A stretch of DNA of 64,000 nt from Spirochaetia bacterium (lineage in GTDB: Bacteria; Spirochaetota; Spirochaetia; UBA9216): the NCBI GenBank assembly GCA_963675665.1, contig OY776510.1, positions 339,467 through 403,466 of the forward strand, written 5' to 3'. Position numbers and translations under genes: made by a program. Of this stretch, positions 5,387 to 57,877 are shown piece after piece. The notes beneath the pieces are model-generated. The model was not told the origin of the DNA. It saw only the letters and a program-made list of their open reading frames with translations, and searched no databases. Each line of letters begins with the position of its first letter. Positions within the stretch are counted from its first letter, which is position 1.

Positions 5387-6661
5387 CATAGCTGTCCAAA
5401 ACAATCATAACAGCTCCATTTGAAGTTTTAAGCCTGGCTCATTTCTGCCGGGCGGCGGTAGTTTATTCAGAATATTCCAGAGATCTTTTCTGGTCGTCAG
5501 GATTGATGGAAGCAATTTCATAAGCGAATAATGAGTCCATCCACCGGAAGATAACATCTTCAGATATTGCAGCATCAGATGAGTTATCAATGCTATCCAG
5601 ATCTGAGTCATTACTGCATTTTTCGTCGTTCCAAAAAACTTCTTTATTTTCAGGTTCTGTTTGATTGTTTTGAAGAATATTTCTATCTGCCATCTGTCCT
5701 TATAGACAGCAGCAACTGTTGTAGGTGCCCAATCAAGCTGATTTGTAAGAATTACAATATATTTTCCTGTTTCCGGATCTTTTATTCTAATTCGCCGTAA
5801 TTGGAGTGGACACTTCTTGCTGGTGTAGTATCCTCGCATTTCAATTATTTGATCTGATGAAATATTTTCATATTTTGAAACATTATTTCTTTGAAAAACT
5901 TTATAATCTGCATTCTTTTTCATACGAGTAATAAAATAAATGCCTGCAATACAATAACTTGCAAATAATTTGAAATCTGTATAGGCCCGATCGAATGCAA
6001 CTACATCACCTTTATTGAATTTCATTTTCTTGAGTGAATTAAGCTCATGGGTTTGAGCTGTTGTAACAGATACAAAGTCCGGAATATATCCGCTGTGATC
6101 AAGTTTTACATTAAGTTTGATTCCGCCTTTATTCTTTCTAAACTTCGCCCATGGAAATACTGACAGGCATAAATCGATGGTTGTCGCATCAACACTGTAC
6201 AGCGGATTTTTAAATCTATGCTTATGAGACCTTTTCATTTTAAGGATCTTTGTCAGCAGGTTATTGAATACATTTTCATAAATTTCTGAGGGTCTGTTGT
6301 TATTTGCATAGGAAAGTGTTGAGCGTTTAATCTTTTTTACCCCCAAATGATAAAGCATGTTTTTAATCGAATCCAATGCTGTTTCTATGCCTCTAAGTCC
6401 GGTCTGTCCTGTAAATTGGGCAAACAGCATTGAAACAAATTGTTCCCAACAGGAGAATCCTTTTGAAGCAAAATCTCCTTTATACTTTCTGACAGATCTT
6501 TCAAATTCATGTCTCGGAATGATTTGAAGTATCTGATTTAAAATGCTATTCTTATAACTCATTGCCTGTTTTCCTTCCGTTGTAATGATTTAAGCTTGCC
6601 CGCTCAATTCATTATAACCAGGGATTCAGGCTATTAATAGTCCTTATTTTGGACAGCTATG
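5387..6661 (-). mobile_element. Intact IS4-family insertion sequence (1275 bp)
   Basis: Terminal inverted repeats CATAGCTGTCCAAAAC (5387-5402) and its reverse complement (6646-6661) match 15/16. They are flanked by the 9-bp direct repeat ATTTTATAT (5378-5386 and 6662-6670). The element carries a single DDE transposase ORF. Confidence 0.85.
5405..6562 (-). CDS. IS4-family DDE transposase
   Basis: 385 aa. N-terminal DUF4372-like region (ILNQILQIIPRHEFERSVRKYKGD) and a C-terminal DDE_Tnp_1 domain, typical of IS4/IS1634-type transposases. Confidence 0.85.
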   Translation of the reverse strand: MSYKNSILNQILQIIPRHEFERSVRKYKGDFASKGFSCWEQFVSMLFAQFTGQTGLRGIETALDSIKNMLYHLGVKKIKRSTLSYANNNRPSEIYENVFNNLLTKILKMKRSHKHRFKNPLYSVDATTIDLCLSVFPWAKFRKNKGGIKLNVKLDHSGYIPDFVSVTTAQTHELNSLKKMKFNKGDVVAFDRAYTDFKLFASYCIAGIYFITRMKKNADYKVFQRNNVSKYENISSDQIIEMRGYYTSKKCPLQLRRIRIKDPETGKYIVILTNQLDWAPTTVAAVYKDRWQIEIFFKTIKQNLKIKKFFGTTKNAVMTQIWIALITHLMLQYLKMLSSGGWTHYSLMKLLPSILTTRKDLWNILNKLPPPGRNEPGLKLQMELL

Positions 6662-7224: not shown

Positions 7225-8184
7225 TTACTTCAGGATTCCAACTTCTTTGAAGTATCTGGCCGCACCGGGATGAAGGTCGACCGGCATCCCCTTGAGAGCG
7301 TTCTCTAAAGTAATCTGACTTCCAACCGCATGAGAAGCCTTGACCCGATCCAGATTTTCGAATATTGCTTTTACCAATTTATAAGCCACTTCTTCATCCA
7401 TACTCTTATCAACGCAGAGCATGGCCTTTACGCTTATCATTTCAACATCTTCTGTTTGTCCTCTATATGTATTAGCAGGCAGTACATATTCAGCAAAGAA
7501 AGGATATTCTTTGATAACTTGATCTCTTAATTCGCCATCGATAGGGACAACATGCAATTCATGTTGAGCAGCAATATCCTGCATAATAGCAGCAGGAGCG
7601 CCTATAGTATTCATGAATGCATCAATTACCCCGTCTTTCAATGCAGCTGCTGCATCGGTATGCTGAAGAGTATACTTCTTAATATCTTCATCGATATCCA
7701 TTCCAGCCACTCTGAAAAGTTGTTTACAGTTTTCAGTGATTATACTGCCAATTCCACCAACCGAAACCCTTTTACCTCTTAAATCATATATTGAATTGAT
7801 ATTTTTATCCAAGGTTACTACATGAAAAGGTTCTACATGCATTGTAAAAAGCCCTCTCACATCTTCATATTTGTTGATTCCCGCTTTTCCTTGTACCGCA
7901 TAGAATACAGCATCATTCTGATTCAAGCTGGCTTCAATTTGGCCTTCTTTCATAAGATTCAGATTGGCAACTGAACATCCAGTACTTTGTGCGGTTGCGT
8001 TGATTCCTTCTATACTTGTATTCCAAATATCCGCAAACCCTCCGCCGATTGGGAAATACGTACCTGATGTTCCGCATGTCCCGAGATTGATGAAAACAAC
8101 ATCATCCTGCTGTCCGGTAGAATGAACATACCCGATAAAAAGCATGAACATTAATGCCAAACATAATAAAAACCTCTTTTTCAT
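7225..8184 (-). CDS. TRAP transporter solute-binding subunit, TAXI family
   Basis: 319 aa with signal peptide. TAXI/Imp-like signature ...VFINLGTCGTSGTYFPIGGG... Confidence 0.8.
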   Translation of the reverse strand: MKKRFLLCLALMFMLFIGYVHSTGQQDDVVFINLGTCGTSGTYFPIGGGFADIWNTSIEGINATAQSTGCSVANLNLMKEGQIEASLNQNDAVFYAVQGKAGINKYEDVRGLFTMHVEPFHVVTLDKNINSIYDLRGKRVSVGGIGSIITENCKQLFRVAGMDIDEDIKKYTLQHTDAAAALKDGVIDAFMNTIGAPAAIMQDIAAQHELHVVPIDGELRDQVIKEYPFFAEYVLPANTYRGQTEDVEMISVKAMLCVDKSMDEEVAYKLVKAIFENLDRVKASHAVGSQITLENALKGMPVDLHPGAARYFKEVGILK

Positions 8185-9707: not shown

Positions 9708-10241
9708 ACTACAATGCTTACATTTTATCAAGAAAAACATTATAAGATTTCACATAACTATAAAAAGTTTCAAATGCTGGGCAGGTCACTTATTTTCAGG
9801 ATGCAGCCTTATAGCATAAACCTAAATGAAATTATTTGTTTTTTTAAAAAAAGCATAAGAATTTCTACTTTTTGCAATCATTTCAACTCATTTAATGAAA
9901 ATGATCTTATCGTCCTTAGATAATTCAAAAAGAGTGTATGCAAACACATTAATGACGAATAAAGGGACATTAAAATATCTTCCGGGAAACATTTTGAAAT
10001 CAGGGTAGTGCCAAGTTTTTACATCTGAGAGAAATAAACTTTATAAAAAAAGTAACCCCGTTTTAAAAAGTTTTGACTGATAATGAAGCAAGCCTGCCGG
10101 ACAGCTCTTGCCCGGATTAACAAAGTGCCGGGTTTTTTATGATCTTCCTTGAAGAACAATCTGAAAATTATAAGTAACCAAAAGGAGCTCAATCAGCTGA
10201 CATAACTAGTTTTTTAAATTGTTATTAAATTTAAAATATAT

Positions 10242-10952
10242 TTATTTTTGTCTTTTTTTTGTCAGTAGAGAAATTCTTTCAAAATTCTTCATATGTTTCT
10301 CCATCTCAACTGCAGCGCCTTCAATATCCTTGTTTACAATCCGCTTCAGTATAGCTTTATGGCTTTTCGCTGAAGCTTCGGTTCTTCCGGGAAGGATATT
10401 GCTGAATTCAACAAAACTTTCTATCAAATTGGAAAATAGTGTATAAATCAATTCCAGGAAAGTATTCTGCGTTGAATGAATGATTTCCATATGAAATTCT
10501 ATATCAAGCTTTGAAATCTTTTTTCTATTCGTCACATTTTCATCCATTCCTTCGATGATTTCCTGAAGTTTTTTGACGTTCTCATCTGTTCTGTTCGCTG
10601 CGGCTAATTTTGCAGATTGTATTTCTATTATTCTCCGAAATTCTGCAATTTTCTCGATTTCGTATTTATCTTTATTCCTTGCATAATACAGTTTAAAAAC
10701 CTCAGAAATATTATCGACTTCTATTTGCTGTATATATGTTCCGCTGCCTGGCTGTGTCTCAAGCAGACCTTTTGCATTCAGTATATTAAGTGCCTCTCTA
10801 ATAACGGTTCGGCTGACATTGAATTTTTCACATAATTCTCTTTCAGTAGCCAGCCTGCTTCCAGTTGCCAATTCCCCTTTCAAATATAACTCTTCTATTT
10901 GATTTGCAACCTGATACGATAATTTATCCTGCCTGAAAACCGGTTCATACAT
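10242..10952 (-). CDS. GntR family transcriptional regulator (FadR/FCD subfamily)
   Basis: 236 aa. wHTH (ERELCEKFNVSRTVIREALNILNAKGLL) plus helical FCD domain. Confidence 0.8.
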   Translation of the reverse strand: MYEPVFRQDKLSYQVANQIEELYLKGELATGSRLATERELCEKFNVSRTVIREALNILNAKGLLETQPGSGTYIQQIEVDNISEVFKLYYARNKDKYEIEKIAEFRRIIEIQSAKLAAANRTDENVKKLQEIIEGMDENVTNRKKISKLDIEFHMEIIHSTQNTFLELIYTLFSNLIESFVEFSNILPGRTEASAKSHKAILKRIVNKDIEGAAVEMEKHMKNFERISLLTKKRQK

Positions 10953-15235: not shown

Positions 15236-16417
15236 TCATGAGGCAAAGAAGTTACCTCTTTTAAATGTTGTCACCCCAAAAAATGACGTCAAATTCCGTG
15301 GAAGATCGGTAAAAGATGCTCTGATTCCCAGATTCTGCGCCTTTTTTCCTTTTACGTAATAAAGAAGAGGAACATATTCACGTGTATGGTCTGTCCCCTT
15401 AAAAGTCGGATCACATCCGTGGTCGGCTGTAATAACAAGAAGGTCGCCTTCATCCATAAGTTCAATCATTTCGGGCAGTCTGTCGTCTACAGCCCTGACA
15501 GCATCATGATACCCCTGAACATCGCGCCTGTGCCCGTAGACCATATCGGTATCAACCAGATTCACAAAAATAAACTCGGCCTTTTCCGGTTTTACGGAAA
15601 GCAGCTTCAACGTCCTGTCGATACATGCGGGATTTCCTTTATCAGGCCAGGTTTCATCTATGCCCTGTCCATTGAATATATCGCCTATCTTGCCTACGGC
15701 TATGGTTTTAACTCCTTCCGTCCGCAGATGGTCAAGAATTGATTCTTCCGGCAGCGCAATGCTGTAATCATGGCGCCGGCTGGTTCGACTGAAAGCTCCC
15801 GGACGGCCTTCAAAAGGTCTGGCGATTATACGGCCGACCATGTAAGAATCACATAACCGGCGCGTAATTTCACAAATGCGGTAAAGTTCATCAATCGGAA
15901 TAATGTCTTCATGCGCAGCAATCTGAAAAACCGAATCGGCTGATGTGTAACAGATGGGCGCACCTGTTTTCATATGTTCTTCGCCCAGTTCTTCTATTAT
16001 AGCGGTGCCCGACGCAGCTTTATTTCCGAGAATGGTCCGACCGGTTTCTCTTTCAAAAGCATCAACCAGCTCAGACGGAAAAGACGGATATTCCGGCGGA
16101 AAGACAGGAAAAGGTTTATCCAGAACAATACCGGCAAGTTCCCAGTGACCCGTCGTCGTATCCTTTCCGGGAGAAGATTCGTTCATAACGCCGTATGAAG
16201 CAAGCGGGGCGTCGACCGGGGGGCAGCCTTTCAGCTCGTTCCCAAGCAGCATGGACGCGTTGCCGAGTCCGAGTTTCTGTAAACTGGACCAGTCGGCTCC
16301 GCCGGGTACATTTTCACTTATGTGCAGTGCTGTATTCGAACCGACATCCCCGTATCTGTCGGCATCCGGCAGCTCTCCGATCCCGAAACTGTCTATTACA
16401 AGTACTGTCGCACGCAT
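15236..16417 (-). CDS. deoB: phosphopentomutase
   Basis: 393 aa. Alkaline-phosphatase-superfamily DeoB N-terminus MRATVLVIDSFGIGELPDA and conserved metal-binding regions. Confidence 0.85.
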   Translation of the reverse strand: MRATVLVIDSFGIGELPDADRYGDVGSNTALHISENVPGGADWSSLQKLGLGNASMLLGNELKGCPPVDAPLASYGVMNESSPGKDTTTGHWELAGIVLDKPFPVFPPEYPSFPSELVDAFERETGRTILGNKAASGTAIIEELGEEHMKTGAPICYTSADSVFQIAAHEDIIPIDELYRICEITRRLCDSYMVGRIIARPFEGRPGAFSRTSRRHDYSIALPEESILDHLRTEGVKTIAVGKIGDIFNGQGIDETWPDKGNPACIDRTLKLLSVKPEKAEFIFVNLVDTDMVYGHRRDVQGYHDAVRAVDDRLPEMIELMDEGDLLVITADHGCDPTFKGTDHTREYVPLLYYVKGKKAQNLGIRASFTDLPRNLTSFFGVTTFKRGNFFAS

Positions 16418-28052: not shown

Positions 28053-28832
28053 CTAATACCCGCTCTCAATCGTCTGGCCGCTGATTATTTTTATTCCGCC
28101 GCTGGTGCCCAGCCTTGTAGCTCCGGCTTTGATCATTGCAACAGCATCATCAAATGTCCGGACCCCTCCGGCAGCCTTTACTTCGGCATGTGCACCTACA
28201 GTCTTTTTCATCAGCGCAACATGTTCGGGTTTTGCACCGGCAGTTGAGAACCCGGTTGAGGTTTTTACAAAGTGCGCCCCCGTTTCCTTGCAGATCTGAC
28301 AGGCAAGAATAATTTCCTCTTCCGTAAGAAGGGCGGTTTCTATTATGACTTTCAGTTTCGCCCTCTGGCCGCATGCCCGAAGGACCCAAAGCACATCGTC
28401 TTTAACAAGTTTCAGGTCCCGTGATTTAAGGGCGCCGATATTCATTACCATATCGATTTCGTTTGCCCCGTCCTCAATAGCATGACGTGCTTCAAAATGT
28501 TTGCTTCGACTGTTCATGGCGCCGAGAGGAAAGCCTACAACGGAACAAACCTTTACATCCGTTCCCCGAAGGTTCCCGGCACAGCGTTCAACCCAGGTTG
28601 TATTCACGCATACTGAATAAAACCCGTACTCTTTAGCCTCGCTGCAGAGCTTGTCTATATCCTCAGCTGTCGCCTCAGGCTTCAGCAATGTATGATCTAT
28701 ATATTTGGCCAGTTCCGAAGGCCTAATGCTCAAGCTATCTCCGGTGTTTTTCCCGGTAGAAAAAGCCGGTTCAGCTTTCAGCCTGCTGACAACCTCTTTG
28801 GTTATGCTCTCAATCAGTTCATTTTCATCCAT
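28053..28832 (-). CDS. deoC: deoxyribose-phosphate aldolase with ~40-aa N-terminal extension (putative encapsulation peptide)
   Basis: Short-type DeoC core (KYIDHTLLKPEAT, VCVNTTWV, KVCSVVGFPLGA, FVKTSTGF). It is preceded by the amphipathic helix MDENELIESITKEVVSRLKAE and a low-complexity linker that free-standing DeoC lacks. Confidence 0.85.
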   Translation of the reverse strand: MDENELIESITKEVVSRLKAEPAFSTGKNTGDSLSIRPSELAKYIDHTLLKPEATAEDIDKLCSEAKEYGFYSVCVNTTWVERCAGNLRGTDVKVCSVVGFPLGAMNSRSKHFEARHAIEDGANEIDMVMNIGALKSRDLKLVKDDVLWVLRACGQRAKLKVIIETALLTEEEIILACQICKETGAHFVKTSTGFSTAGAKPEHVALMKKTVGAHAEVKAAGGVRTFDDAVAMIKAGATRLGTSGGIKIISGQTIESGY

Positions 28833-28837
28833 AATTT

Positions 28838-29338
28838 TTATCCGTTTCCCCTTTCCACAGCCATCATTTTATTAATCCTCGGCCAGTGCCTGCCGCCTTC
28901 GAAGCGTGTCTCAAGCCATATTTTTACCATTTCGCACAGCTCCCGGGGCTGGTGCAGCGGTCCTCCGAGTGTTAATACATTTGCGTTATTGTGTAATCGG
29001 CTGTTTTTCACCGTTACTATATCATAACACAGAGCGGCGCGTATACCTCTTACCTTGTTGCAGACCATCGACGATCCTATTCCGGCGCCGTCTATCATTA
29101 TTCCGCGCGAATCATCTTCAGCGGCCACCTTTCTGGCAACCTTCACCGCATAATCAGGGTAATCCACGCTTTCTTTTGAAAAAGTGCCTACGTCCTCCAC
29201 CCTGTAACCGAGCGTTTCAATATATCTTTTCAGGATTTCCTTGGATTCGAAACCTCCGTGGTCCGAGCCGATATATATCTTTGTAATCTTATCGGTACTG
29301 TTCTTTTCACTGAAATCAACACTGTTATACATAATCAC
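28838..29338 (-). CDS. rpiB: RpiB/LacA/LacB family sugar-phosphate isomerase
   Basis: 166 aa. IGSDHGGFE and GxGxG motifs of ribose-5-phosphate isomerase B. Confidence 0.8.
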   Translation of the reverse strand: MIMYNSVDFSEKNSTDKITKIYIGSDHGGFESKEILKRYIETLGYRVEDVGTFSKESVDYPDYAVKVARKVAAEDDSRGIMIDGAGIGSSMVCNKVRGIRAALCYDIVTVKNSRLHNNANVLTLGGPLHQPRELCEMVKIWLETRFEGGRHWPRINKMMAVERGNG

Positions 29339-29607
29339 CCCGCTGTTGTAATTTCATCAATTATTCCGACAATTACCGTCCGTATCGGTAGCCCCGACGA
29401 GTTTAAAACCAGGTTTGCCGAACCGCCCTCGTCAATAACAAGCACCCTGTCTCCCGTGCCGGCCTGCACCGTATCCACTGCGATAAAAGACGCTCCGGCC
29501 CTGCCGCCGTCCGGGGCTTCCGGCGTTACGATCAATAATTTCAGATTCTTCAGAGCTCCAATTTTCGCATCGGCGACAACAGTTCCGGTAACCCTGCCTG
29601 CAATCAT
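29335..29607 (-). CDS. BMC vertex protein (BMC-P, EutN/CcmL/PduN family)
   Basis: 90 aa. MIAGRVTGTVVA... GxVxxT motif and EutN_CcmL fold. Confidence 0.85.
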   Translation of the reverse strand: MIAGRVTGTVVADAKIGALKNLKLLIVTPEAPDGGRAGASFIAVDTVQAGTGDRVLVIDEGGSANLVLNSSGLPIRTVIVGIIDEITTAG

Positions 29608-29876
29608 ACTTCCGCCTTTTCCAGCTGATCAATAATACCGATTACCGCGGCATCAGCCGGATTAAACTGATTTCTCATCGACATCGCGGCCTCTCTGCCG
29701 CCCTCGTAAATCACCAAATCGCCGGGACCCGCCTGGACCGTATCGCAGGCAACTATCGGAGGGCCCTTTTCTTTCATTTCATCATCAAGCGGCTGGATAA
29801 GAAGCAGGATTTCTCCTTCAAAAGATTCCACCTTGACGGAACATACAACCGAACCCGTTACTCTTGCTATCTTCAT
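29604..29876 (-). CDS. BMC vertex protein (BMC-P, EutN/CcmL/PduN family)
   Basis: 90 aa. MKIARVTGSVVC...DTVQAGPGD; paralog of the adjacent BMC-P. Confidence 0.85.
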   Translation of the reverse strand: MKIARVTGSVVCSVKVESFEGEILLLIQPLDDEMKEKGPPIVACDTVQAGPGDLVIYEGGREAAMSMRNQFNPADAAVIGIIDQLEKAEV

Positions 29877-29888
29877 ATCTCAACCGCC

Positions 29889-31307
29889 TCAGACTATCCT
29901 GAAATTATCAACCAGAACGCACCGCCGTTCCCTGGTAAATGTCCTTGCCCTGGTGAACCCTTCCCCGGTAGGGCTGGCTATCGTAAAAGACGTGAACCCT
30001 GAACCGCCGTAACCCATACCGTTGAAATTCGAACCGTTTTTAACAAACAGCGAACAGTTCATAATTCTGGCCATTTTTGAGAGCTTGTCGATGTTGGTTG
30101 AATGTATCGACGCGCTGTGCCTGAAACCGTGTTCAACTTCAAAAGCAAAATCAATCGCTTCGTCTACATTGTTCATTCTTACAAGCGGGATTACGGGCAT
30201 CAGCTGCTCGGTCCATACCAGGGGATGAGAACCGTCGACTTCGCACAGCAGGATTCGCGTTTCCTCCGGAATATCAAGCCCTATCATTCCGGCAATTACC
30301 GATGCGTTTTTACCAACATATTTTTTGTTTATCGCACCTTCATCGCCTTTTCTTCCGGGCCGTTCGATAACCATATCCGTAACCGCCTTAATCTGTTCCG
30401 AACCCAGTTCAAAAGCTCCCTGTCTGCACATTTCCGTTTTCAGAAGGTCGGCCACCTGCCTGACGACAAAGATTTCCTTTTCGCAGATACAAACGATATT
30501 GTTGTCAAAACCTGTGCCGGCAACTATGTCCCTTGCGGCTTTAGGAATATCAGCTGTTTCATCAACAACTACCGGCGGATTTCCGGGACCGGCGGCTATT
30601 ACTTTTTTTGAGGACTGCCGCGCAAGGTTAACCACTGCCGGACCGCCCGTAACCGTAAGCAAGTCTACCAGCGGGTGCTTCATAAGCATCTGACCGGACT
30701 CTATTGTAGGTGCATCAACAGTAGTTATTACGTTATCAGGGCCCCCGGCTTCGGCAATTGCCCTGTTCAATATGCCTACCGTAAAAACCGATACCTTTTT
30801 AGCCGCCGGATGCGGGTTAAAAACCACCGTATTGCCGGCGGCAAGCATACTGATGGAATTATTGATTATGGTTTCGGTCGGATTAGTACTGGGCGCAATT
30901 GCCCCTATTACGCCGTACGGCGCATTTTCCACCAGCGTCAGCCCGTGATCATCGGTAAAACTCTGCGGCTCCAGGTCTTCCACGCCGGGAGTTAAATCGG
31001 CGGCAAGGGCGTTCTTTTTTAATTTATCTTCATACCGCCCCATTCCTGTTTCTTCCACAGCCATGGCGGCCAGTTTTTCCACGTTGGCATGAACTGCTGC
31101 TCGCATTTCCTTTATCATCTTTCGCCGGACTTCCAGACTTGTCTTCCGGTAAACGCCGAATGCTTTCGAGGCCTCATAGACGGCCTTGTTGATATCAGGA
31201 AAGACTCCGGGCACACTGTAAGCCGCCGCTTCTTTCCTGCCGTCGGTATTTAATTCCTCAATTACATTTTTCACTATCTCACTGACAGCTTTTTCATCAA
31301 TTTCCAT
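29889..31307 (-). CDS. CoA-acylating aldehyde dehydrogenase (EutE/PduP-like) with N-terminal encapsulation helix
   Basis: 472 aa ALDH fold with catalytic-Cys region NNIVCICEKE and AAGPGNPP. N-terminal amphipathic helix EKAVSEIVKNVIEEL. Confidence 0.85.
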   Translation of the reverse strand: MEIDEKAVSEIVKNVIEELNTDGRKEAAAYSVPGVFPDINKAVYEASKAFGVYRKTSLEVRRKMIKEMRAAVHANVEKLAAMAVEETGMGRYEDKLKKNALAADLTPGVEDLEPQSFTDDHGLTLVENAPYGVIGAIAPSTNPTETIINNSISMLAAGNTVVFNPHPAAKKVSVFTVGILNRAIAEAGGPDNVITTVDAPTIESGQMLMKHPLVDLLTVTGGPAVVNLARQSSKKVIAAGPGNPPVVVDETADIPKAARDIVAGTGFDNNIVCICEKEIFVVRQVADLLKTEMCRQGAFELGSEQIKAVTDMVIERPGRKGDEGAINKKYVGKNASVIAGMIGLDIPEETRILLCEVDGSHPLVWTEQLMPVIPLVRMNNVDEAIDFAFEVEHGFRHSASIHSTNIDKLSKMARIMNCSLFVKNGSNFNGMGYGGSGFTSFTIASPTGEGFTRARTFTRERRCVLVDNFRIV

Positions 31308-31860
31308 TGAAAAACCCCTTAAGGTCCGGATGCGGGCCCGGTATTATCACTCTGCTGTAAAGCATGCCCTTGCTGAAAAGCGGTTCTGCCGCTGCGTCAA
31401 CCGCAGGCTGTACATCGCTTACCGGCCCGTTTATCATCAAAATTCCCCGGCCGCCTGTTTCGTTCCCTGCCTTGATGGATACTATGTCGATTTCAGCCTT
31501 CTTTGCGGCCCTGTCAGCGGCTTCTATGGCGCCGGCAACGGACACTGATTCGACTATACCCAGCGCGTCGGGGGCCCGGGGGGCGCGGAACGTCTGCAGG
31601 GCCGGCAGAATACTACCGTCCAGAGCAGTGAGCAGCAGATGATCAAGTATCATGCTGCTGTTTTCAACAGCCCCGATTCCGGCATCAAGCGCTATTTCCG
31701 TCGACGCGACATCGCCGGTAACAAGAATCAGGAATTTACCCGGATTGACAATGTCCGCCTTCAATACTGAAACCGGAGCCGACTTTATCATTGCATCAAG
31801 GCACACATAACCGTCTGCGATGCTGAGCAGTTCAAGAACACCAAGAATTTCAGCATTCAT
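31297..31860 (-). CDS. BMC-T shell protein, tandem-BMC-domain PduT-like
   Basis: 187 aa with two PF00936 repeats. Alignable end-to-end with PduT (ILGVLELLSIADG...PGKFLILV...). Confidence 0.75.
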   Translation of the reverse strand: MNAEILGVLELLSIADGYVCLDAMIKSAPVSVLKADIVNPGKFLILVTGDVASTEIALDAGIGAVENSSMILDHLLLTALDGSILPALQTFRAPRAPDALGIVESVSVAGAIEAADRAAKKAEIDIVSIKAGNETGGRGILMINGPVSDVQPAVDAAAEPLFSKGMLYSRVIIPGPHPDLKGFFNGN

Positions 31861-32144
31861 TTTCTGTATACTTCCCTTCCGTTTTCAACTACAGAATCGA
31901 CAATTCCTACTATGAGCGCATCAACGGGTTTGTCGATCGTAGAGGGCGTCTGCCTTGTTGACGAGCCCTGTGAAACCATAACAATCTCGTCTTTACCGGC
32001 GCCGATTATATCCAGCGCTATCATGTCGCCGCCTGCCGTTTTGCCTTCGGGCGTCAGCGGGGACACAACCAGATACGCCGGCGAATCAAGTCCGTCCGCT
32101 CTGACTGCCGCAACAACCGTGCCGCTTACTTTTGCCAGCAGCAT
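31857..32144 (-). CDS. BMC vertex protein (BMC-P)
   Basis: 95 aa EutN/CcmL-like (MLLAKVSGTVVAAV...DIIGAGKDE). Confidence 0.8.
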   Translation of the reverse strand: MLLAKVSGTVVAAVRADGLDSPAYLVVSPLTPEGKTAGGDMIALDIIGAGKDEIVMVSQGSSTRQTPSTIDKPVDALIVGIVDSVVENGREVYRK

Positions 32145-32446
32145 TATTTTAAGCCCGCCTTTGAATAAACGATCTTTCCGTCGATTTCCAGATTATCAAC
32201 TATGGCTGTTATTGTCGCGTCGCTCGGTTTTCCACTTGTAACATCAGTCTGCCGGCTGCTGCTTCCGGTCACATAGAATACTATCTCGCCCATCCCTGCG
32301 CCTACGGCATCCATTGCGACAATAAAATCGTTTTTACCTTTCATTGTCTTCGGATCCAGTTTTTCAACCAGAAGGAATTTAATTCCGTCAAGCCTCGGCT
32401 CTTTCATAGTCGAGACTACCGTGCCGACCACTTTTGAAAGTACCAT
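32144..32446 (-). CDS. BMC vertex protein (BMC-P)
   Basis: 100 aa EutN/CcmL-like (MVLSKVVGTVVST...DAVGAGMGE). Confidence 0.8.
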   Translation of the reverse strand: MVLSKVVGTVVSTMKEPRLDGIKFLLVEKLDPKTMKGKNDFIVAMDAVGAGMGEIVFYVTGSSSRQTDVTSGKPSDATITAIVDNLEIDGKIVYSKAGLK

Positions 32447-32449
32447 CGG

Positions 32450-32749
32450 TTACTTCTTGCCTTCGGCTCTTCCAAGCGGATAGACAGCGTCAACGCTTTC
32501 ATGGGGCCTGGGTATAATACTCACTGAAATAATTTCGCCCACACGCTCTGCTGCGCGGTTGCCCGCATCAAGAGCAGCCCTGACTGCCGCCACATCTCCC
32601 CTTATCACGGACGTTGTATACCCGCCGCCGATTTTAACCTGGCCGATGAGTTCAACATTGGCCGCTTTTACCATTGCATCCGAGGCTTCAACCATTGCGG
32701 CGAATCCTCGTGTCTCTATCATTCCCAAAGCATTTTCAGTTATTGCCAT
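32450..32749 (-). CDS. BMC-H hexameric shell protein (PduA/EutM-like)
   Basis: 99 aa. ALGMIETRGFAAMVEASDAMVKAANV...GGGYTTSVIRGDVAAV. Confidence 0.9.
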   Translation of the reverse strand: MAITENALGMIETRGFAAMVEASDAMVKAANVELIGQVKIGGGYTTSVIRGDVAAVRAALDAGNRAAERVGEIISVSIIPRPHESVDAVYPLGRAEGKK

Positions 32750-33376
32750 TTATTCCTCCCTTCCGTTTATATCAGCAAGCCTTGCTTCGACCACATCCTT
32801 GCTTACAAGCACTTCGGCCTCTTCACCCGCGATATAAACTCTTCCGTATTTACCATACCCAGTTACATTTATAATCTTGATAGTGGACGCTTTCTCTGCT
32901 TCATTAGCCGCATAAAAAGCATATCCGGCCGGTTCGATCTCAAGAACAAACAGGGTATCTCCCCTCAGCACCATATTCCCATACCGGACTTTATTTACAA
33001 GCTGTGCATGGTGATCACTGACGTTTTTGATAAGCTGGCTTGTAAGAACGCGGGGTTTCATCCTGCTGGCCTCTTCCAGTTTCAGCTCTTCAAGGACGGC
33101 ACTCCCGGCCTGCCTTACATCGGCCTGACTGTCTGAATGGACCTCCAGCAGGCCGAAGGAGCGCTCAACTATCTGTATACCCGGGACCACATTCGTGGCC
33201 TTCAGGGCAATATCGGTAAGCCTGTTTATTTCTATTCCCGGTGAGATCTCAATAAACGCGCAGGCCTGGCCTCCCACAGGGAAATACCCCCGTGAAATAG
33301 TGCACATATACGACGCCATCTGAAGCTGCAGCGAATCAATAAAATTATAAGTTCGAAGATCTACGTTGTTCATCAT
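32750..33376 (-). CDS. BMC-T shell protein, circularly permuted tandem BMC (EutL/PduB-like)
   Basis: 208 aa; permuted BMC-domain signatures. Lacks the RHxH motifs of PduL, which excludes a phosphotransacylase. Confidence 0.55.
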   Translation of the reverse strand: MMNNVDLRTYNFIDSLQLQMASYMCTISRGYFPVGGQACAFIEISPGIEINRLTDIALKATNVVPGIQIVERSFGLLEVHSDSQADVRQAGSAVLEELKLEEASRMKPRVLTSQLIKNVSDHHAQLVNKVRYGNMVLRGDTLFVLEIEPAGYAFYAANEAEKASTIKIINVTGYGKYGRVYIAGEEAEVLVSKDVVEARLADINGREE

Positions 33377-33382: not shown

Positions 33383-33670
33383 TCAGCCGTTCAGCGGCAG
33401 TTTCGCGTCTACAGAAGAATCCGGCCGGGGTATCAGGTGTACTGAAATAACCTCCCCAATTTTTTCGCCGGCCCTGCTTCCTGCATCAAGAGCAGCCTTT
33501 ACAGCGGCAACGTCTCCCCGGATTACGGCGGTAACGTATCCCCCGCCGGTTTTTTCCCAGCCTTTCAAATCGACTTTCGCAGCTTTTACCATCGCATCCG
33601 AAGCTTCAACAAGAGCGGCGAACCCCTTTGTTTCTATCATACCTAATGCTTCCGTCTGTATGTCAGCCAT
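33383..33670 (-). CDS. BMC-H hexameric shell protein (PduA/EutM-like)
   Basis: 95 aa. ALGMIETKGFAALVEASDAMVKAAKV...GGGYVTAVIRGDVAAV. Confidence 0.9.
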   Translation of the reverse strand: MADIQTEALGMIETKGFAALVEASDAMVKAAKVDLKGWEKTGGGYVTAVIRGDVAAVKAALDAGSRAGEKIGEVISVHLIPRPDSSVDAKLPLNG

Positions 33671-33681: not shown

Positions 33682-34461
33682 TTAAACAGTAAATAATTCT
33701 ATGCCATAATCCCTGATAATACGTTCATATTCTTCAGGAATACCGGTATCCGTTATAATTGCACTGAAATCTTCAAGTGAAGCAAAATAATTGGTCTGGA
33801 CCTTTCCGAATTTACTCGAATCAATCAGCAGAATCCTTTTCTGGCTGGATTCCATTATCGCTTCCTTTACAGCCCTCTCGTGGTGAATCTTTGTCGTCAC
33901 TCCCAGCTCTGCGGTTGCTCCGCTGGCCGAGACAAAGGCTGTAACCGCCCGTGTCCGCCTGATAAGAGACAAACCCTCGGGACTTTCAAACATCTGGGAA
34001 CGTTCATGAAACAACCCCCCGGCAAACAGCACCTGGCAGTTTTTCTTTCTGGTCATTTCATTCAGCACATTAAGCGAGTAGCAGAGTACTGTCAGGGGAA
34101 AATCAGCCGGAATCAGCCTGGAAACCAGTTCCATCGTCGAACCGGAATCGAGAGTGATAACATCGTCGGGGTCGATAAGGGAAACAGCTTTTTCGGCTAT
34201 CCTCTTTTTTTCGGCCATCCTGATCGTTCCCGCGACAGGCAGAGTATAATCCGCTTCCGGGTTTCTGCCTGTCGTTCCGGAATTGTAAAATACCCCTCCG
34301 TGCCTTGAAAGAACAAGATTCTGATCTTCAAGGATTCTCAGATCACGGCGTATCGTCATCTCTGATACCTGCAGCTTCCCGGAAAGATACTTTACATCCG
34401 CTGATTTGTTTTCTTCGAGATATTCAACTATCGAATTCAGCCGCCTGATTTTCTTGTTCAT
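33682..34461 (-). CDS. DeoR/GlpR family transcriptional regulator (first gene of BMC operon)
   Basis: 259 aa. N-terminal HTH (ADVKYLSGKLQVSEMTIRRDLRILE) plus DeoR C-terminal sugar-phosphate sensor domain. Stop lies 11 bp from the first shell gene. Confidence 0.8.
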   Translation of the reverse strand: MNKKIRRLNSIVEYLEENKSADVKYLSGKLQVSEMTIRRDLRILEDQNLVLSRHGGVFYNSGTTGRNPEADYTLPVAGTIRMAEKKRIAEKAVSLIDPDDVITLDSGSTMELVSRLIPADFPLTVLCYSLNVLNEMTRKKNCQVLFAGGLFHERSQMFESPEGLSLIRRTRAVTAFVSASGATAELGVTTKIHHERAVKEAIMESSQKRILLIDSSKFGKVQTNYFASLEDFSAIITDTGIPEEYERIIRDYGIELFTV

Positions 34462-50899: not shown

Positions 50900-52081
50900 A
50901 TGAGAGCATTTAATTATTATTCACCTACAAATATTGTATTTGGAAACGGTCGTATAAGTGAAATCGGAAATCTAATCAACAGTGAATGCAGAAAACCGCT
51001 GCTTGTCATGAATAAAGGTCCTTTCAGACAGAATGGAATTTATGATCAAATCAAAAAGTATATTGTTTCAAGTGGTCGTGAATTAATAGAGATGAATGAT
51101 ATAGATTCCAATCCCAGACTTTCAAGCGCAAGAGAAGGAACAAGAATCTGTAAAGAGAAAAAAGCCGACTGCATTATTGCAGTCGGCGGAGGAAGCGCAA
51201 TGGACTGCGCCAAGGTCATTGGAGCTTCGGCTGCATCGGGAACAGATCCTTACGAACTTCTCTGGGGGTCCAAACCTGAAGTAACTGTATCGCTGCCCGT
51301 CATAGCTGTTCCAACTATTGCCGCAACAGGTTCTGAATGCAACCCCACTGCCGTAATTGTTAATGATGAAACAAAAGAAAAGTATTTCTGCAACTGCATT
51401 CATCCTGTAACAACTATTCTTGATCCGGAACTGACCTTAACTGTTCCTCTCAAACTGGCAATATGGGGCACAATGGACATCTTAAGCCATACATTTGAAT
51501 ACTACTTTAACGGAGATACAAATTCGGAATCACAGCTGCGTTTATCAGAATCGATTATACATGCGACAATGAAAGCGCTTGATGATCTTGTTAAAAATCC
51601 CGATGACGTACAGGCCCGTGGAGAATTAATCTGGTGTTCAATCATGGCCTGGGGCGGACTTACAAAAATCGGCCGCGGCGAACCGGACATGGCCTGTCAC
51701 GGACTGGAGGAATCATTCTCAGGCTGGTTTGATACTCACCACGGAGCATGCCTCGGTGTGTTGACTCCGAGATGGATGGATATTGTAAGCAAAAAAATAC
51801 CGGAGCCGTTTGCCAGGTTCGGCCGGAATATTTTTTACATAGAAGAAAAAGATAACATAAAAGCGGCTGCCGCGGCTGTTGCCGAATATAAAACATGGCT
51901 TAAACAGGTTGGAGCCCCCGACACATATTTTGATATAGGGTCAAAAGATTTCTCTGATGAAGATCTAAAACATGTAGCAGAAACAAGCTGCAGAATATAT
52001 AACGGTGCTGTCGGAAGGTTATATAAATTTGATAAAGAAGAATCCCTCAACCTTCTTAAAAGTGGAAAGGTAAAGCTATAA
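50900..52081 (+). CDS. iron-containing alcohol dehydrogenase (Fe-ADH family)
   Basis: 393 aa. N-terminal Fe-ADH Rossmann region (GGGSAMDCAKVIG) and His-rich metal site. Confidence 0.85.
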   Translation: MRAFNYYSPTNIVFGNGRISEIGNLINSECRKPLLVMNKGPFRQNGIYDQIKKYIVSSGRELIEMNDIDSNPRLSSAREGTRICKEKKADCIIAVGGGSAMDCAKVIGASAASGTDPYELLWGSKPEVTVSLPVIAVPTIAATGSECNPTAVIVNDETKEKYFCNCIHPVTTILDPELTLTVPLKLAIWGTMDILSHTFEYYFNGDTNSESQLRLSESIIHATMKALDDLVKNPDDVQARGELIWCSIMAWGGLTKIGRGEPDMACHGLEESFSGWFDTHHGACLGVLTPRWMDIVSKKIPEPFARFGRNIFYIEEKDNIKAAAAAVAEYKTWLKQVGAPDTYFDIGSKDFSDEDLKHVAETSCRIYNGAVGRLYKFDKEESLNLLKSGKVKL

Positions 52082-52236: not shown

Positions 52237-52953
52237 TTACCGTAACCCTTTAAGTCTGCCGCGCAGTAGACCCACTCTCTCTTCCGTTGGAGGAAGAACT
52301 CCGTCAAGGGGATACTCCTTCCCGCAATTCGCCCACTTGTTTTTTCCCATATCGTGATACGGAAGAAGTTCCACCCTTTCGGGAGGGTTATCTGATTCAA
52401 GTATTTCAGCCAGATGATCTACCTGTTCAACAGTATCTGTATAACCCTCAACAATTACCTGTCTTACCCGGTATCTTATGTTGCTGTTCTGCAGATACTC
52501 CAGGCAGCAGAATGCCGAATCCCCTGAAAATGAGCAAATGCGCCCGTATTGGTTCATGTCGGAATGCTTGATGTCCAGAATTACAAGATCAACCAGGCGA
52601 AACAGCTCGGCGACTTTCCTGTTAAAAACGGATCCGGAAGTATCGACAGCCGTGCTGATTCCGTATTTCTTCAAGGACGCTGCCGCTTCGAAAAGAAAAT
52701 CTCCCTGCAGCAGCGGCTCGCCGCCGGAAAATGTAACTCCGCCGTCCTCTCCGTAGTACTCCCGGTAAGACAGGGCCGTAGAAACCACCTTACCAACAGT
52801 ATAGAGTTCACCGCCGTTGAGACTCCAGCTGTCGCGGTTATGGCAGTAAACGCACTGCATGTTACAGCCCTGAAGAAAAAAAACGGTTCTTATCCCGGGC
52901 CCGTCCAGGGTTCCCATGGTTTCTATAGAATGAATTCGACCCTGAATCATCAT
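52237..52953 (-). CDS. pflA: pyruvate formate-lyase activating enzyme (radical SAM glycyl-radical activase)
   Basis: 238 aa. CxxxCxxC cluster ([11 protein letters not shown]) and SAM-binding motifs. Overlaps pflB. Confidence 0.85.
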
Positions 52954-55178
52954 ATTCTCTCAAAATAGGTTCTGGCGATAATTTCTTCCTTCTGAATTTT
53001 TGTAAGCTTGTGAAAATTTACGGCATAGCCGGAAACCCTGACAGTCAGGTTCGGATACTTTCCCGGATTCTCCATTGCATCTTTTAACGTCTGCCTGTCC
53101 AGTACATTCACATTAAGATGATGCCCTGATTTTTTAAAATATCCGTTGATAATGTTGACAAGGTTCTTTTCCGACGACTGCTCATCCGGACCAAGCGTCC
53201 GCGGTGAAACCGAGAAAGTGCAGGAGATACCGTCGCGACAGCAGTCGAATGGAATCTTGGATACCGAGTTAAGCGAAGCAAGGGCCCCCATCTTTTCCCT
53301 GTTATGCATCGGGTTTGCTCCCGGAGCAAATGGTTCGCCGCGCTTCCTGCCGTCCGGGGTTGAACCTGTTTTTCTGCCGTAAACAACATTAGACGTAATA
53401 GTGAGAATTGACAGGCTGTGTTCGGCTTCTCTGTATGTCTCCGTTTCCCTCAACAGGGAAATAAACTCCCCGGTCAGTTCGGCTGCAATTGTGTCTACCC
53501 TGTCGTCATCATTACCGAACTTCGGGAAATCGCCCTCTATCGAGTAATCGGTAATCAGCCCGGTTTTATCGGTAACCGGAGTAACCCTGGCATATTTAAC
53601 AGCCGAAAGGGAATCGGCGGCGACCGACAGCCCGGCTATACCGAAGGCCATAAAGCGTTTTACATCGGTATTGTGCAGGGCCATCTGGGTTTTCTCGTAG
53701 GCGTATTTGTCATGCATATAATGAATAATATTCATCGTGTTGACATATTTTTCACATAACCACTTCAGGTAGAAGGAAAACCGGCTGCGAACCCTGTCAT
53801 AGTCAAGCGGACCCTGGTTCAGCGGCTCCCGGGCCGGGGCGATATATTCCCCGTCCAGTTCATCTCTGCCGCCGTTAAGCGAAACCAGCAGGGTTTTGGC
53901 CAGGTTGCAGCGGGCTCCGAAAAACTGCATTTCTTTTCCTATTTTCATGGCCGATACGCAGCAGGCTATGGCGTAATCATCGCCGTAATCGCTGCGCATA
54001 AGATCATCGTTTTCATACTGGATTGAATCAGTATCGATTGACACCCTTGCGCAGAATTCCTTGAACCCGGAAGGAAGATCTTCCGACCACAGCACAGTAA
54101 GGTTCGGTTCTGCCGAGCTTCCGAGATTGTAAAGGGTCTGAAGCATTCTGTAGGAGGTTCTTGTTACCATAGGAACACCTTCTTCGGTCATTCCACCTAT
54201 AACCTCGGTAATCCACATCGGATCTCCTGCAAAAAGCTCATTGTAATCCGGCGTGCGCAGCTGACGGGCACAGCGCAGTTTCAGAACAAAATCATCGACA
54301 ATCTCCTGGATCCGGCTTTCAGTAATAACACCCTCGCTGAGGTCCCGTTCAAAATAGACGTCGAAGAAGGTACTGACCCGTCCGAGAGACATAGCCGCCC
54401 CGTTCTGCTCCTTGATTGCGCCGAGGTACGCAAAATAAGTCCACTGCACGGCCTCTTTCCCGTTTGCAGCCGGCCTCGATATATCGATTCCGTAGAGCAG
54501 CGCCATTTTTTTCAGCTTTTCAAGAAAATCTATCTGTCTGTACAGTTCCTCAAGCAGACGGATAATTTCGTCGTTCATCTGCTTCTTCGACAGGTTGTCC
54601 TTGTCGCTGATTTTTTCGCCGATAAGCCTGTCGACACCGTAAAGCGCTACTCTTCGATAATCGCCGATTATACGTCCCCGGCCGTAGGCATCCGGCAGCC
54701 CGGTAATAAGCCCCGAACGCCTGAGGGTTTTGATTTCGTCGTCATAAACACGGAAAACCCCGTCGTTATGCGTGGTCCTGAACCGGAAATGGTTCTCAAT
54801 CTCTTCCGAAAGGACCGCCCCGTAGGAAGCGCAGGCGTCCCGGGCCATCCGTATTCCGCCGAAAGGGTTTACACCTCTCTTCAAAGGTTCGTCGGTCTGA
54901 AGTCCGACGATAATTTCGTTGTCTTTATCAATGTATCCTGCCGGATAACTGAGCAGCGACGAGACCTTTTCGGTGTCGATGGACAGCACCCCGTTGTTTT
55001 CGCTTTCAGTCTGCAACAGCTTATCAAGCCGGGCATTTAACAATTCGGTTCGTCGGGTCGGGCCGCACAGGAAATTGCCGTCTTCATAATAGGGGGTATA
55101 ATTAGTTTTAATGAAATTCCGGACATCGATTTCTTCAGTCCAAAGTCCTGCATTGAAATTTCGCCATTCTTTTCGCAT
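52950..55178 (-). CDS. pflB: formate C-acetyltransferase (pyruvate formate-lyase)
   Basis: 742 aa. C-terminal glycyl-radical motif RVSGYAVNF and PFL N-terminus similar to E. coli PflB. Confidence 0.9.
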
Positions 55179-57803: not shown

Positions 57804-57877
57804 AGGGCCCTCCTGCATTGTTTCAGTATAATCCATATCGGCTGCAAGATCGAATCTTATCATTATTTTTGGAAGTT

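Follow-up and report, generated by a model that had tools for sequence, protein, structure and literature searches.

Predicted N-terminal encapsulation peptides on the aldolase and the aldehyde dehydrogenase of a spirochaete sugar-phosphate-utilisation metabolosome

The aldolase DERA (DeoC) is the signature enzyme of the sugar-phosphate-utilisation (SPU) metabolosome, which is among the most prevalent types of microcompartment (PMC11585597). Dwyer, Sutter and Kerfeld (2024, Commun Biol; PMC11585597) described an N-terminal extension that is present on all SPU aldolases and missing from DERAs outside microcompartments, and found that the SPU6 DERA became soluble once this extension was deleted. 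The same study reported that the aldehyde dehydrogenase peptide is N-terminal in every SPU subtype but SPU6, that all SPU RPIs carry a Cys-to-Asp change, and that DERA and RPI form a complex. Encapsulation peptides reveal which enzymes are inside a microcompartment and thereby define its chemistry, and they also serve as tags in the engineering of synthetic nanoreactors.

Here we describe an SPU locus in a 64,000-nucleotide stretch of DNA from a Spirochaetia bacterium (contig OY776510.1), the whole of which is called the window below. The locus is an operon of 12 genes on the minus strand that runs from the DeoR regulator gene at 34461 to the DeoC gene ending at 28053, with a promoter-like site (34501-34473) and a terminator-like site (34590-34571) upstream of the DeoR gene. 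The region 28053-31307, with both enzymes of main interest, is the 3' half of the operon. The features are as follows.

28053..28832, minus strand: DeoC (DERA), 259 aa; PF01791 at residues 42-248, TIGR00126 deoC at residues 40-250 (E = 1.9e-85)
28719..28772, minus strand: linker of DeoC (residues 21-38), predicted to be disordered (pLDDT ~42) and rich in Gly, Ala, Ser, Pro and Thr
28773..28832, minus strand: DeoC residues 1-20 (MDENELIESITKEVVSRLKA), conserved helix (AlphaFold2 helix at 3-20)
28838..29338, minus strand: RpiB-like protein; PF02502 at residues 21-158, likely start ATG at 29332
29335-29607 and 29604-29876, minus strand: two tandem BMC-P (EutN/CcmL) pentamer genes; PF03319 (E = 9e-22 and 8e-26)
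29889..31307, minus strand: CoA-acylating aldehyde dehydrogenase of the EutE/PduP type, 472 aa; PF00171, NF011927 from residue 4 (E = 1.4e-199)
31212..31247, minus strand: short linker of the aldehyde dehydrogenase (residues 21-32); alignments to solved homologues start at residues 27-33
31248..31307, minus strand: aldehyde dehydrogenase residues 1-20 (MEIDEKAVSEIVKNVIEELN), predicted encapsulation helix with the hydrophobic pattern of the PduD tag
31297..31860, minus strand: PduT-like BMC-T with two tandem BMC domains; PF00936 twice, TIGR02526 (E = 4e-24, under the curated cut-off)
31857-32144 and 32144-32446, minus strand: two further BMC-P genes; PF03319 (E = 1e-22 and 1e-24)
32450..32749, minus strand: BMC-H hexamer protein; PF00936 (E = 3.6e-28)
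32750..33376, minus strand: CcmP-like double-stacking BMC-T (BMC-Tdp); no Pfam match, PDB CcmP 4ht5 (E = 2.7e-65), NF053796 (E = 5.8e-80, under the curated cut-off)
33383..33670, minus strand: BMC-H hexamer protein; PF00936 (E = 8.4e-29)
33682..34461, minus strand: DeoR-family regulator, first gene of the operon; PF08220 and PF00455

Matches in Pfam, NCBIfam and the PDB identify eight of these genes as shell genes, namely two for BMC-H, two for BMC-T (PduT-like and CcmP-like) and four for BMC-P, which is an unusually large number of shell paralogues; the non-shell genes encode the aldehyde dehydrogenase, RpiB, DeoC and the DeoR regulator. The operon is an SPU metabolosome operon: it joins a DeoC-family aldolase (pfam01791) to PF00936 and PF03319 genes and to an acylating aldehyde dehydrogenase, the gene adjoining that for DERA is of the RpiB family (pfam02502) and has a Cys-to-Asp change at the catalytic base, and at least three BMC-P paralogues (here four) accompany BMC-H and BMC-T. 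Several features hint at subtype SPU2 or SPU3: a BMC-Tdp of the CcmP-like kind, DERA and RPI that are not fused, an aldehyde dehydrogenase whose peptide is N-terminal, and an operon that lacks a phosphotransacylase (PTAC) gene. No PduS homologue was found in Pfam scans of the operon genes and of the window's open reading frames of at least 180 aa. A phosphopentomutase and a pyrimidine-nucleoside phosphorylase are also encoded in the window and would supply deoxyribose 5-phosphate. DeoC itself matches PDB DERAs with E values down to 1e-77, and its residues D127, K190 and K219 are invariant across a 41-sequence DeoC alignment (A1).

The aldolase barrel is preceded by an N-terminal extension. Alignments of DeoC with solved DERAs and with the TIGR00126 deoC model start only at residue ~40, and Foldseek matches span ~210-220 of its 259 residues. 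Because 45 residues stand before the DHTLLK motif in the window DeoC and mostly ~7-14 in DeoCs outside microcompartments, the extension amounts to ~31-38 residues, close to the ~40 extra residues of the first-pass annotation, and the alignment that had been proposed there as a check finds it missing from the non-microcompartment enzymes. The N-terminal peptides quoted in that annotation, ELIESITKEVVSRLKAE (DeoC residues 5-21), PAFSTGKNTGDSLSIRPSE (DeoC residues 22-40) and EKAVSEIVKNVIEEL (aldehyde dehydrogenase residues 5-19), are all encoded on the minus strand where it had placed them. AlphaFold2, run on DeoC with a 41-sequence alignment, predicted a helix at residues 3-20 (pLDDT ~70), disorder at 21-37 (pLDDT ~42) and the barrel from residue 38. 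The helix has a hydrophobic face composed of L6, I7, I10, V14, V15 and L18, and its best 11-residue hydrophobic moment is as high as the one calculated for the validated PduP peptide (0.61 in both); the 18-residue moment of 0.33 is not significantly above that of shuffled sequences when the single sequence is considered (z = 0.73). The proposal of an amphipathic helix followed by a linker was thus borne out by the predicted structure and the 11-residue moment, and not by the 18-residue moment. An HMM of the DERA helix matched only DeoC among the 130 open reading frames of at least 80 aa in the window (E = 2e-13), and a scan of all open-reading-frame termini for the hydrophobic pattern found, besides DeoC and the aldehyde dehydrogenase, just three more matches, namely two BMC-P beta-strands and one unrelated C-terminus.

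Conservation follows the same division into helix, linker and barrel. The helix is in register in 94 of 120 homologues, with positions 6, 7, 10, 14, 15 and 18 hydrophobic in 94-100%, and pairwise identity among homologues falls from 71% (barrel) to 50% (helix) and 16% (linker). The linker is 16-63 residues long in A1, with Gly, Ala, Ser, Pro and Thr making up 63% of the homologues' linker residues, and the spacer from the end of the helix to DHTLLK ranges from 1 to 70 residues among DeoC homologues. At the helix positions the same or a similar residue is kept by up to seven different codons; this synonymous variation at core positions shows that the extension is translated and under selection. 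The helix is also tied to shell genes. Among 80 genomic loci examined to 10 kb on each side, the counts of helix-HMM positivity (E < 1e-3) against the presence of at least two shell genes were 26/2/7/45 (Fisher p = 1.6e-12), the 45 being loci that lack shell genes and fall under the HMM threshold. Of the two exceptions, one (L005) has a gene for BMC-H immediately upstream of that for DeoC, and the other is a 2.8 kb contig. A spirochaete DeoC that is 72% identical to that of the window (P0074) has no extension and a non-microcompartment context. The extension thus appears, within the 10 kb examined on each side, to be absent from homologues outside microcompartments, apart from similar extensions at a few loci (L039, L077, L078 and the short contig L055).

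Three readings would detach the extension from encapsulation. The annotated start might be wrong, with the true start at an in-frame TTG at codon 34 and the upstream peptide an untranslated leader. That TTG is present, the Shine-Dalgarno-like sequence ahead of the DeoC ATG at 28832 is weak or distant, and Dwyer et al. noted that start sites of such genes are often mis-assigned, albeit in the opposite direction (too short). The ATG, however, lies just 5 bases past the RpiB stop codon, the frame stays open throughout linkers of widely differing length, and a peptide kept at the amino-acid level in 94 of 120 homologues, whose hydrophobic periodicity survives many synonymous codons, makes such an artefact very improbable. 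A secretion signal or membrane anchor has in its favour the N-terminal position alone and can be discounted almost completely; it was already excluded by composition, given a net charge of -2 over residues 1-20, a negative mean hydrophobicity over residues 3-20, and neither a hydrophobic core stretch nor a positively charged N-region in what is predicted to be a helix and then a disordered linker.

In the third such reading the helix would serve oligomerisation or stability within a DERA subfamily, unrelated to microcompartments and comparable to the N-terminal segment that the Thermotoga maritima enzyme carries. The solved T. maritima chain 3r12 has ~41 residues, tag included, before the DHTLLK motif, and Foldseek aligns 248 columns of the DeoC model to this DERA. 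Similar DeoC extensions also occur with no shell gene in the DNA examined at L039, L077 and L078 and on a short contig, L055. On the other side, no PDB chain, 3r12 included, is similar in sequence to DeoC residues 1-31, and Sutter et al. (2021, PMC8217296) interpreted remote DeoC genes with an extension as encoding cargo for HO microcompartments whose own genes lie at another genomic site. Together with the strong tie between the helix motif and shell genes and the non-microcompartment setting of the closest homologue that lacks the extension, this leaves a general DERA element improbable.

Like DeoC, the aldehyde dehydrogenase appears to begin with a short helix that precedes its catalytic domain. 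It has ~26-32 extra N-terminal residues relative to solved homologues (PDB 5jfl aligns from residue 27, E = 2.8e-133), and its catalytic Cys (NNIVCICEKE), conserved relative to 5jfl, matches the position of the modified Cys in 5jfn. The hydrophobic pattern of its N-terminus, h.h...hh..hh..hh..h, matches that of the PduD tag MEINEKLLRQIIEDVLRDMK exactly, and the five highest 18-residue hydrophobic moments in the protein belong to segments starting at residues 6-10, with residues 8-25 at the top. The helix analogous to that of DeoC which the first-pass annotation had proposed here is well matched by these features. Aldehyde dehydrogenases encoded at other SPU loci, those of SPU6 type excepted, conserve this helix, and the linker behind it varies widely in length among loci. 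The AlphaFold2 model of this protein, made from the single sequence, was too poor to use (pLDDT 35).

The RpiB-like protein is different. Its tail, which has 18 residues if translation starts at the ATG at 29332 and 20 if it starts at the GTG, is hydrophilic and contains no helix pattern and no encapsulation helix, with the frame closed just upstream by a stop codon; the earlier description of an extension of about 20 residues that is not obviously helical was accurate. Asp occupies the catalytic Cys position (IMIDGAG, compared with ICGTG of PDB 3he8). Most of the spirochaete loci closest to this one (L001-L003, L006-L008) likewise encode an RpiB that lacks the helix; RpiB proteins with a helix occur at L004, L009, L013-L015, L019 and the SPU6-type loci.

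The extensions of DeoC and the aldehyde dehydrogenase have the sequence-level properties of encapsulation peptides throughout, in support of the targeting signature that had been read into them. Both are N-terminal and belong to enzymes encoded within a contiguous operon with eight shell genes, both contain a predicted amphipathic helix of ~18 residues, and both have a poorly conserved, length-variable linker between helix and catalytic domain. We consider it highly probable that the operon specifies an SPU metabolosome in which DeoC and the aldehyde dehydrogenase are packaged by their N-terminal peptides and the RpiB-like protein enters on DERA. Packaging of each of the two tagged enzymes would rely on a helix of ~18 residues, hydrophobic on one face and joined to the enzyme through a flexible linker (helix 3-20 and linker 21-38 in DeoC; helix ~4-19 and linker ~20-32 in the aldehyde dehydrogenase). 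By analogy with PduP, PduD and EutC, the helices may bind the luminal face of shell proteins, bundle the cargo, or both. The RpiB-like protein, with neither helix nor catalytic Cys, would most likely enter bound to DERA. What the analysis shows is how the extensions are built and conserved, which structure is predicted for that of DeoC, and that they go together with shell genes; encapsulation as such, the partner bound and this mode of RpiB entry are inferred. The aldehyde dehydrogenase would convert acetaldehyde to acetyl-CoA, and the tags imply that the acetaldehyde-producing aldolase step and the acetaldehyde-consuming step would both be internal to the compartment, consistent with the published SPU model of deoxyribose 5-phosphate (DNA/nucleoside) catabolism.

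How the helices act can be conceived in other ways. They may be mainly cargo-to-cargo condensation elements that nucleate an enzyme core, with the shell forming afterwards, and not shell-docking tags; this would be a variant of encapsulation-peptide function and not a denial of encapsulation. Dwyer et al. found the SPU6 DERA insoluble at full length and soluble without its N-terminal extension, and reported that encapsulation peptides promote core-protein aggregation; the DeoC and aldehyde dehydrogenase helices, being similar in length and charge, could bundle together. Against this, the PduP, PduD and EutC tags were shown to direct heterologous proteins into shells and to associate with shell proteins, in a paper that is silent on docking versus bundling, and a predominantly condensing role seems to us possible but rather unlikely. 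A more speculative and still less likely idea is that packaging differs from that in SPU6, with the RpiB-like pseudo-enzyme having lost its targeting helix and serving only as a DERA-bound passenger or adaptor, and with two helix registers that address different shell paralogues and so order the cargo. The hydrophobic registers do differ (hh..h...hh..h in DeoC, h.h...hh..hh..hh..h in the aldehyde dehydrogenase). Packaging of DeoC and the aldehyde dehydrogenase by their own peptides, with RpiB carried in on DERA, is the reading we retain.

Aldolase extensions, aldehyde dehydrogenase peptides and a Cys-to-Asp RpiB are already known for SPU loci (PMC11585597). The first-pass annotation therefore overrated the novelty of an encapsulated aldolase, the DERA extension having been described for SPU subtypes (PMC11585597), and since the tags of the SPU type were published in 2024, the window locus is an ordinary member of a known system. 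With both the SPU model and the peptides in print, it adds only a well-defined short-form example. The short-form aldolase tag and the untagged RpiB are its local details, and the DeoC extension might be used as a compact tag of 38 residues or be compared with the 70-residue SPU6 form.

Set beside the SPU systems of PMC11585597, the window DeoC resembles SPU DERA in having an N-terminal helix before an intact barrel, and its gene likewise lies beside those for RPI and aldehyde dehydrogenase, among BMC-H, BMC-T and at least three BMC-P genes. The RpiB-like gene adjoins that for DERA, 5 bases upstream of it, and has Asp in place of the catalytic Cys, as in SPU RPIs; the SPU6 RPI bears an N-terminal encapsulation peptide, whereas the window protein has no helix and only a short hydrophilic tail. 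DeoC genes with the same kind of extension have been described away from HO-microcompartment loci (Sutter et al. 2021, PMC8217296), whereas the window aldolase lies inside the shell operon; at the Kofleriaceae locus L077, too, a DeoC with the extension is flanked on each side by 10 kb free of shell genes. The window peptides share with the Salmonella tags PduD(1-20), PduP(1-18) and EutC(1-19) an N-terminal position, a helix of 18-20 residues and pairs of hydrophobic positions, although those tags belong to another microcompartment type and other cargo enzymes and are validated, whereas the window peptides are predicted; the register hh..h...hh..h of DeoC also differs from the h..hh..hh of PduP and PduD. 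The helix core motif E-L-I/V-x-x-I-T-x-E-V-L is common to the window DeoC and SPU6-type loci. The SPU6 extension comprises ~70 residues, with a helix of 25-30 and two beta-strands (PMC11585597), whereas that of the window comprises ~38, with an 18-residue helix, a disordered linker and no predicted strands. A four-Cys motif found in 13 of the Chloroflexi- and Actinobacteria-type SPU loci examined is absent from it as well. Being short, strandless and without that motif, the window DeoC tag is closer to the textbook short encapsulation peptide.

The best-supported reading of the window operon is the published model for sugar-phosphate-utilisation (SPU) metabolosomes. The operon consists of 12 closely spaced genes that run on the minus strand from 34461 to 28053, with a promoter-like site (34501-34473) and a terminator-like site (34590-34571) directly upstream of the first gene:

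33682-34461, minus strand: DeoR-family regulator, first of the 12 genes
33383-33670, minus strand: BMC-H shell protein
32750-33376, minus strand: CcmP-like double-stacking BMC-T of 208 aa (PDB 4ht5, E = 2.7e-65)
32450-32749, minus strand: BMC-H
32144-32446 and 31857-32144, minus strand: two BMC-P
31297-31860, minus strand: PduT-like tandem BMC-T
29889-31307, minus strand: acylating aldehyde dehydrogenase, 472 aa
29604-29876 and 29335-29607, minus strand: two further BMC-P
28838-29338, minus strand: RpiB-like protein
28053-28832, minus strand: DeoC (deoxyribose-phosphate aldolase, DERA), 259 aa

The CcmP-like BMC-T would be called "hypothetical" by domain-based annotation: the reading frame has no Pfam match, and its product matches the NCBIfam CcmP model with a score under the curated cut-off. 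The four BMC-P paralogues form two tandem pairs with overlapping stop and start codons (29335-29876 and 31857-32446, minus strand); an icosahedral shell needs only 12 pentamers. At least three BMC-P genes are present in SPU loci according to the literature, for a reason that is left unexplained there. The gene content, with a CcmP-like BMC-T, unfused enzymes and an operon without a phosphotransacylase gene, tentatively suggests subtype SPU2 or SPU3. Genes for PduS, the phosphotransacylase PTAC and triosephosphate isomerase were sought among the scanned reading frames of the window and none was found.

The first-pass annotation had proposed that DeoC carries an N-terminal helix followed by a low-complexity linker, and the peptides it quoted lie exactly where it placed them. 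Alignments to DERAs of solved structure and to the NCBIfam deoC equivalog begin only at about residue 40. An AlphaFold2 model built with 41 homologues bears out the proposed architecture, with a helix at residues 3-20 (pLDDT ~70), disorder at 21-37 (pLDDT ~42) and, from residue 38 onwards, a barrel modelled with confidence. Foldseek matched the model to 50 DERA chains of known structure; most of the matches spanned ~210-220 of its 259 residues, with TM-scores of ~0.95 (target) and 0.80 (query). A PDB search with residues 1-62 gave no match to residues 1-31. The catalytic residues of both enzymes look intact from the alignments: D127, K190 (in FVKTSTGF) and K219 of DeoC are invariant among 41 aligned sequences, and the Cys in NNIVCICEKE of the aldehyde dehydrogenase is aligned to the Cys that is modified in PDB 5jfn.

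The helix is conserved in register. Among the 120 best DeoC homologues, 94 start with M-D-x-K-E-L-I-E/D-K-I-T-x-E-V-L-x-K-L, and the hydrophobic share at positions 6, 7, 10, 14, 15 and 18 is 94-100%. The spacer between the helix and the DHTLLK motif ranges from 1 to 70 residues (median 32). In the 41-sequence alignment, mean pairwise identity falls from 71% in the barrel to 50% in the helix and 16% in the linker, which is 16-63 residues long and consists of Gly, Ala, Ser, Pro or Thr at 63% of its residues. Across nine DNA sequences, the helix core positions keep the same or a similar residue through up to seven different codons, and therefore the N-terminal segment is translated and under selection.

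Two other accounts of the segment were rejected. The TTG at codon 34 is excluded as the DeoC start by this same codon variation, and a signal peptide is ruled out by composition. The hydrophobic face of the DeoC helix comprises L6, I10, V14, I7 and L18, and the Eisenberg moment of the 18-residue window is 0.33, not above shuffles (z = 0.73); the corresponding value for the aldehyde dehydrogenase is borderline (z = 1.66). Amphipathicity was assessed not by the 18-residue moment but by positional conservation across homologues and by calibration on validated Salmonella encapsulation peptides (sequences from PMC5405515). The best 11-residue moment of DeoC (0.61) equals that of PduP (0.61), with PduD at 0.82 and EutC at 0.79. 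The feature is rare within the window: DeoC is the sole match to the DERA helix HMM among 130 reading frames (E = 2e-13), and a scan of termini for the hydrophobic pattern returned DeoC, the aldehyde dehydrogenase, two BMC-P beta-strands and one unrelated C-terminus.

The extension is strongly associated with shell genes. We scanned 80 DeoC loci, from one genome per species and with flanks of up to 10 kb, using tblastn with the window shell proteins and the helix HMM (positive at E < 1e-3) on the longest possible DeoC N-termini (Fisher p = 1.6e-12):

Helix HMM against shell genes at 80 DeoC loci
Helix positive: 26 loci with at least two shell genes, 2 with fewer than two
Helix negative: 7 loci with at least two shell genes, 45 with fewer than two

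The two positive loci without the shell-gene count are L005 and L021, the latter a contig of 2.8 kb. Six of the seven negative loci with shell genes are SPU6-like Chloroflexi, whose longer extensions still have a recognisable helix with a weaker score (E = 0.001-0.7); the seventh is L050, an apparent RPI-DERA fusion. In line with the expectation that DeoC proteins outside microcompartments lack the extension, a Spirochaetales homologue (P0074) has 72% barrel identity and no extension. It adjoins a PF01676 metalloenzyme gene resembling the window phosphopentomutase, among otherwise ordinary neighbours without shell genes, and is the best negative control. Satellite-type arrangements were seen at L005 (9686-10798) and L072 (9527-10660), where a BMC-H and a BMC-P gene, respectively, lie directly upstream of an extension-bearing DeoC gene with no further shell gene within 10 kb on either side. 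Three more loci (L039, L077, L078) have extension-like DeoC N-termini and no shell genes in the flanking DNA examined; Sutter et al. 2021 (PMC8217296) regard remote DeoC genes of this kind as probable HO-microcompartment cargo.

The aldehyde dehydrogenase had also been credited with an analogous helix, and this holds: homologues of solved structure align from residues 27-33, leaving MEIDEKAVSEIVKNVIEELNTDGRKE and a few further residues as an extra N-terminal segment. The helix has a moment of 0.68 and shares the hydrophobic pattern h.h...hh..hh..hh..h with the PduD tag, MEINEKLLRQIIEDVLRDMK. It recurs across SPU loci with greatly differing linker lengths (at least 20 N-termini show the pattern) and is absent from the aldehyde dehydrogenases of the SPU6-type loci compared. 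This distribution agrees with Dwyer et al. 2024 (PMC11585597), who place the peptide at the C-terminus in SPU6 and at the N-terminus in the other subtypes. An AlphaFold2 model of the aldehyde dehydrogenase without an alignment had a mean pLDDT of 35, and the helix it drew at 5-27 carries no weight.

RpiB is different, as had been noted: its extension is not obviously helical, with 18 hydrophilic residues (MYNSVDFSEKNSTDKITK) ahead of the first strand. A stop directly upstream closes the frame, and GGGGTG precedes the likely start, an ATG at 29332. In the window, as in most of the spirochaete loci nearest to it (L001-L003, L006-L008), RpiB begins with no more than a short hydrophilic tail; a clear helix and linker are found on RpiB at L004, L009, L013-L015, L019 and SPU6-type loci. 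Asp occupies the catalytic Cys position (IMIDGAG, aligned with ICGTG of PDB 3he8), and the Cys-to-Asp change, with loss of the catalytic Cys, was reported in all SPU RPIs (PMC11585597). The window RpiB has the look of a DERA partner that is non-catalytic or has been re-purposed. At L050 (uncultured Acidobacteriota), upstream of 10001-10675, RpiB and DeoC share one continuous open frame with a helix-like segment, DDLSRVLARVKQMV, between the two domains; the apparent fusion matches the chimera described for SPU3.

In 13 SPU loci, the long-form DERA extension has a conserved four-Cys motif after the targeting helix and before the barrel (for example CKVECVDDLCVTTC, then FD..G....AGAER). By assignment these loci belong to Chloroflexi, Actinobacteria and a single Bacteroidetes bin:

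C-x3-C-x4-C-x3-C: L029, L030, L047, L054, L061, L062, L068, L069, L071, L073
C-x2-C-x3-C-x3-C: L022, L036, L038

The motif could be a site for a metal, an iron-sulfur cluster or a disulfide. Dwyer et al. 2024 (PMC11585597) do not mention it in their main text, and the window DeoC linker contains no Cys.

Nucleoside salvage and catabolism genes are scattered through the window outside the operon, and are listed here together with glycyl-radical enzyme and alcohol dehydrogenase genes:

15236-16417, minus strand: phosphopentomutase deoB (E = 7e-152)
50900-52081, plus strand: Fe-alcohol dehydrogenase
52237-55178, minus strand: pyruvate formate-lyase-like glycyl-radical enzyme and activase
56499-57863, minus strand: pyrimidine-nucleoside phosphorylase (E = 1e-175)
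59374-60522, minus strand: weak thymidine-kinase domain protein
61482-62423, plus strand: NUDIX protein

A second, housekeeping deoC beside deoB was sought in the window and none was found; a related spirochaete (L081) has an ordinary extension-free deoC in a deoB-like neighbourhood. The glycyl-radical enzyme, its activase and the Fe-alcohol dehydrogenase, ~20 kb from the shell operon, have no terminal extension and are therefore probably cytosolic rather than cargo. Towards the left end, where the window is AT-richer, a DDE transposase gene (DUF4372 and DDE_Tnp_1; 5405-6562, minus strand) is flanked by genes for a TRAP-transporter DctM (3292-5238) and an NMT1-like protein (7225-8184).

Phosphopentomutase and pyrimidine-nucleoside phosphorylase would make deoxyribose 5-phosphate from nucleosides. 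Under the SPU model, this would pass into the shell, and acetaldehyde would be trapped as acetyl-CoA by the aldehyde dehydrogenase. The analysis establishes the anatomy of the tags, their conservation, the predicted structure and the link with shell genes, whereas encapsulation, the partners bound and the way in for RpiB are inferences. By analogy with PduP, PduD and EutC, the helix-plus-linker tags on DeoC and the aldehyde dehydrogenase would serve for docking to shell proteins, for bundling of cargo, or for both. The SPU6 DERA and RPI form a complex (Dwyer et al. 2024, PMC11585597), and for this reason the tag-less RpiB is likely to enter on DERA. That the tags divide the labour between them, and that RpiB is a tag-less passenger, is a possible but improbable reading.

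The name SPU goes back to Axen et al. 2014 (PMC4207490); Sutter et al. 2021 (PMC8217296) enlarged the set to over 280 loci, which fall into seven subtypes. Dwyer et al. 2024 (PMC11585597) reported an amphipathic N-terminal extension, often missed by automated annotation, on every SPU DERA and on none of the non-microcompartment DERAs, and predicted encapsulation peptides on SPU aldehyde dehydrogenases. The sequence features support reading both extensions as encapsulation peptides, and since SPU extensions are stated in that paper, the interpretation of the first-pass annotation appears right and was already published. The subtype-level peptide comparison is based on the main text of that paper. 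The characterised SPU6 DERA extension has ~70 residues that form a helix and two strands, whereas that of the window DERA has ~38 residues, with a helix and a disordered linker. The local particulars of the window locus are this short-form DERA tag, the tag-less RpiB and the four BMC-P genes.
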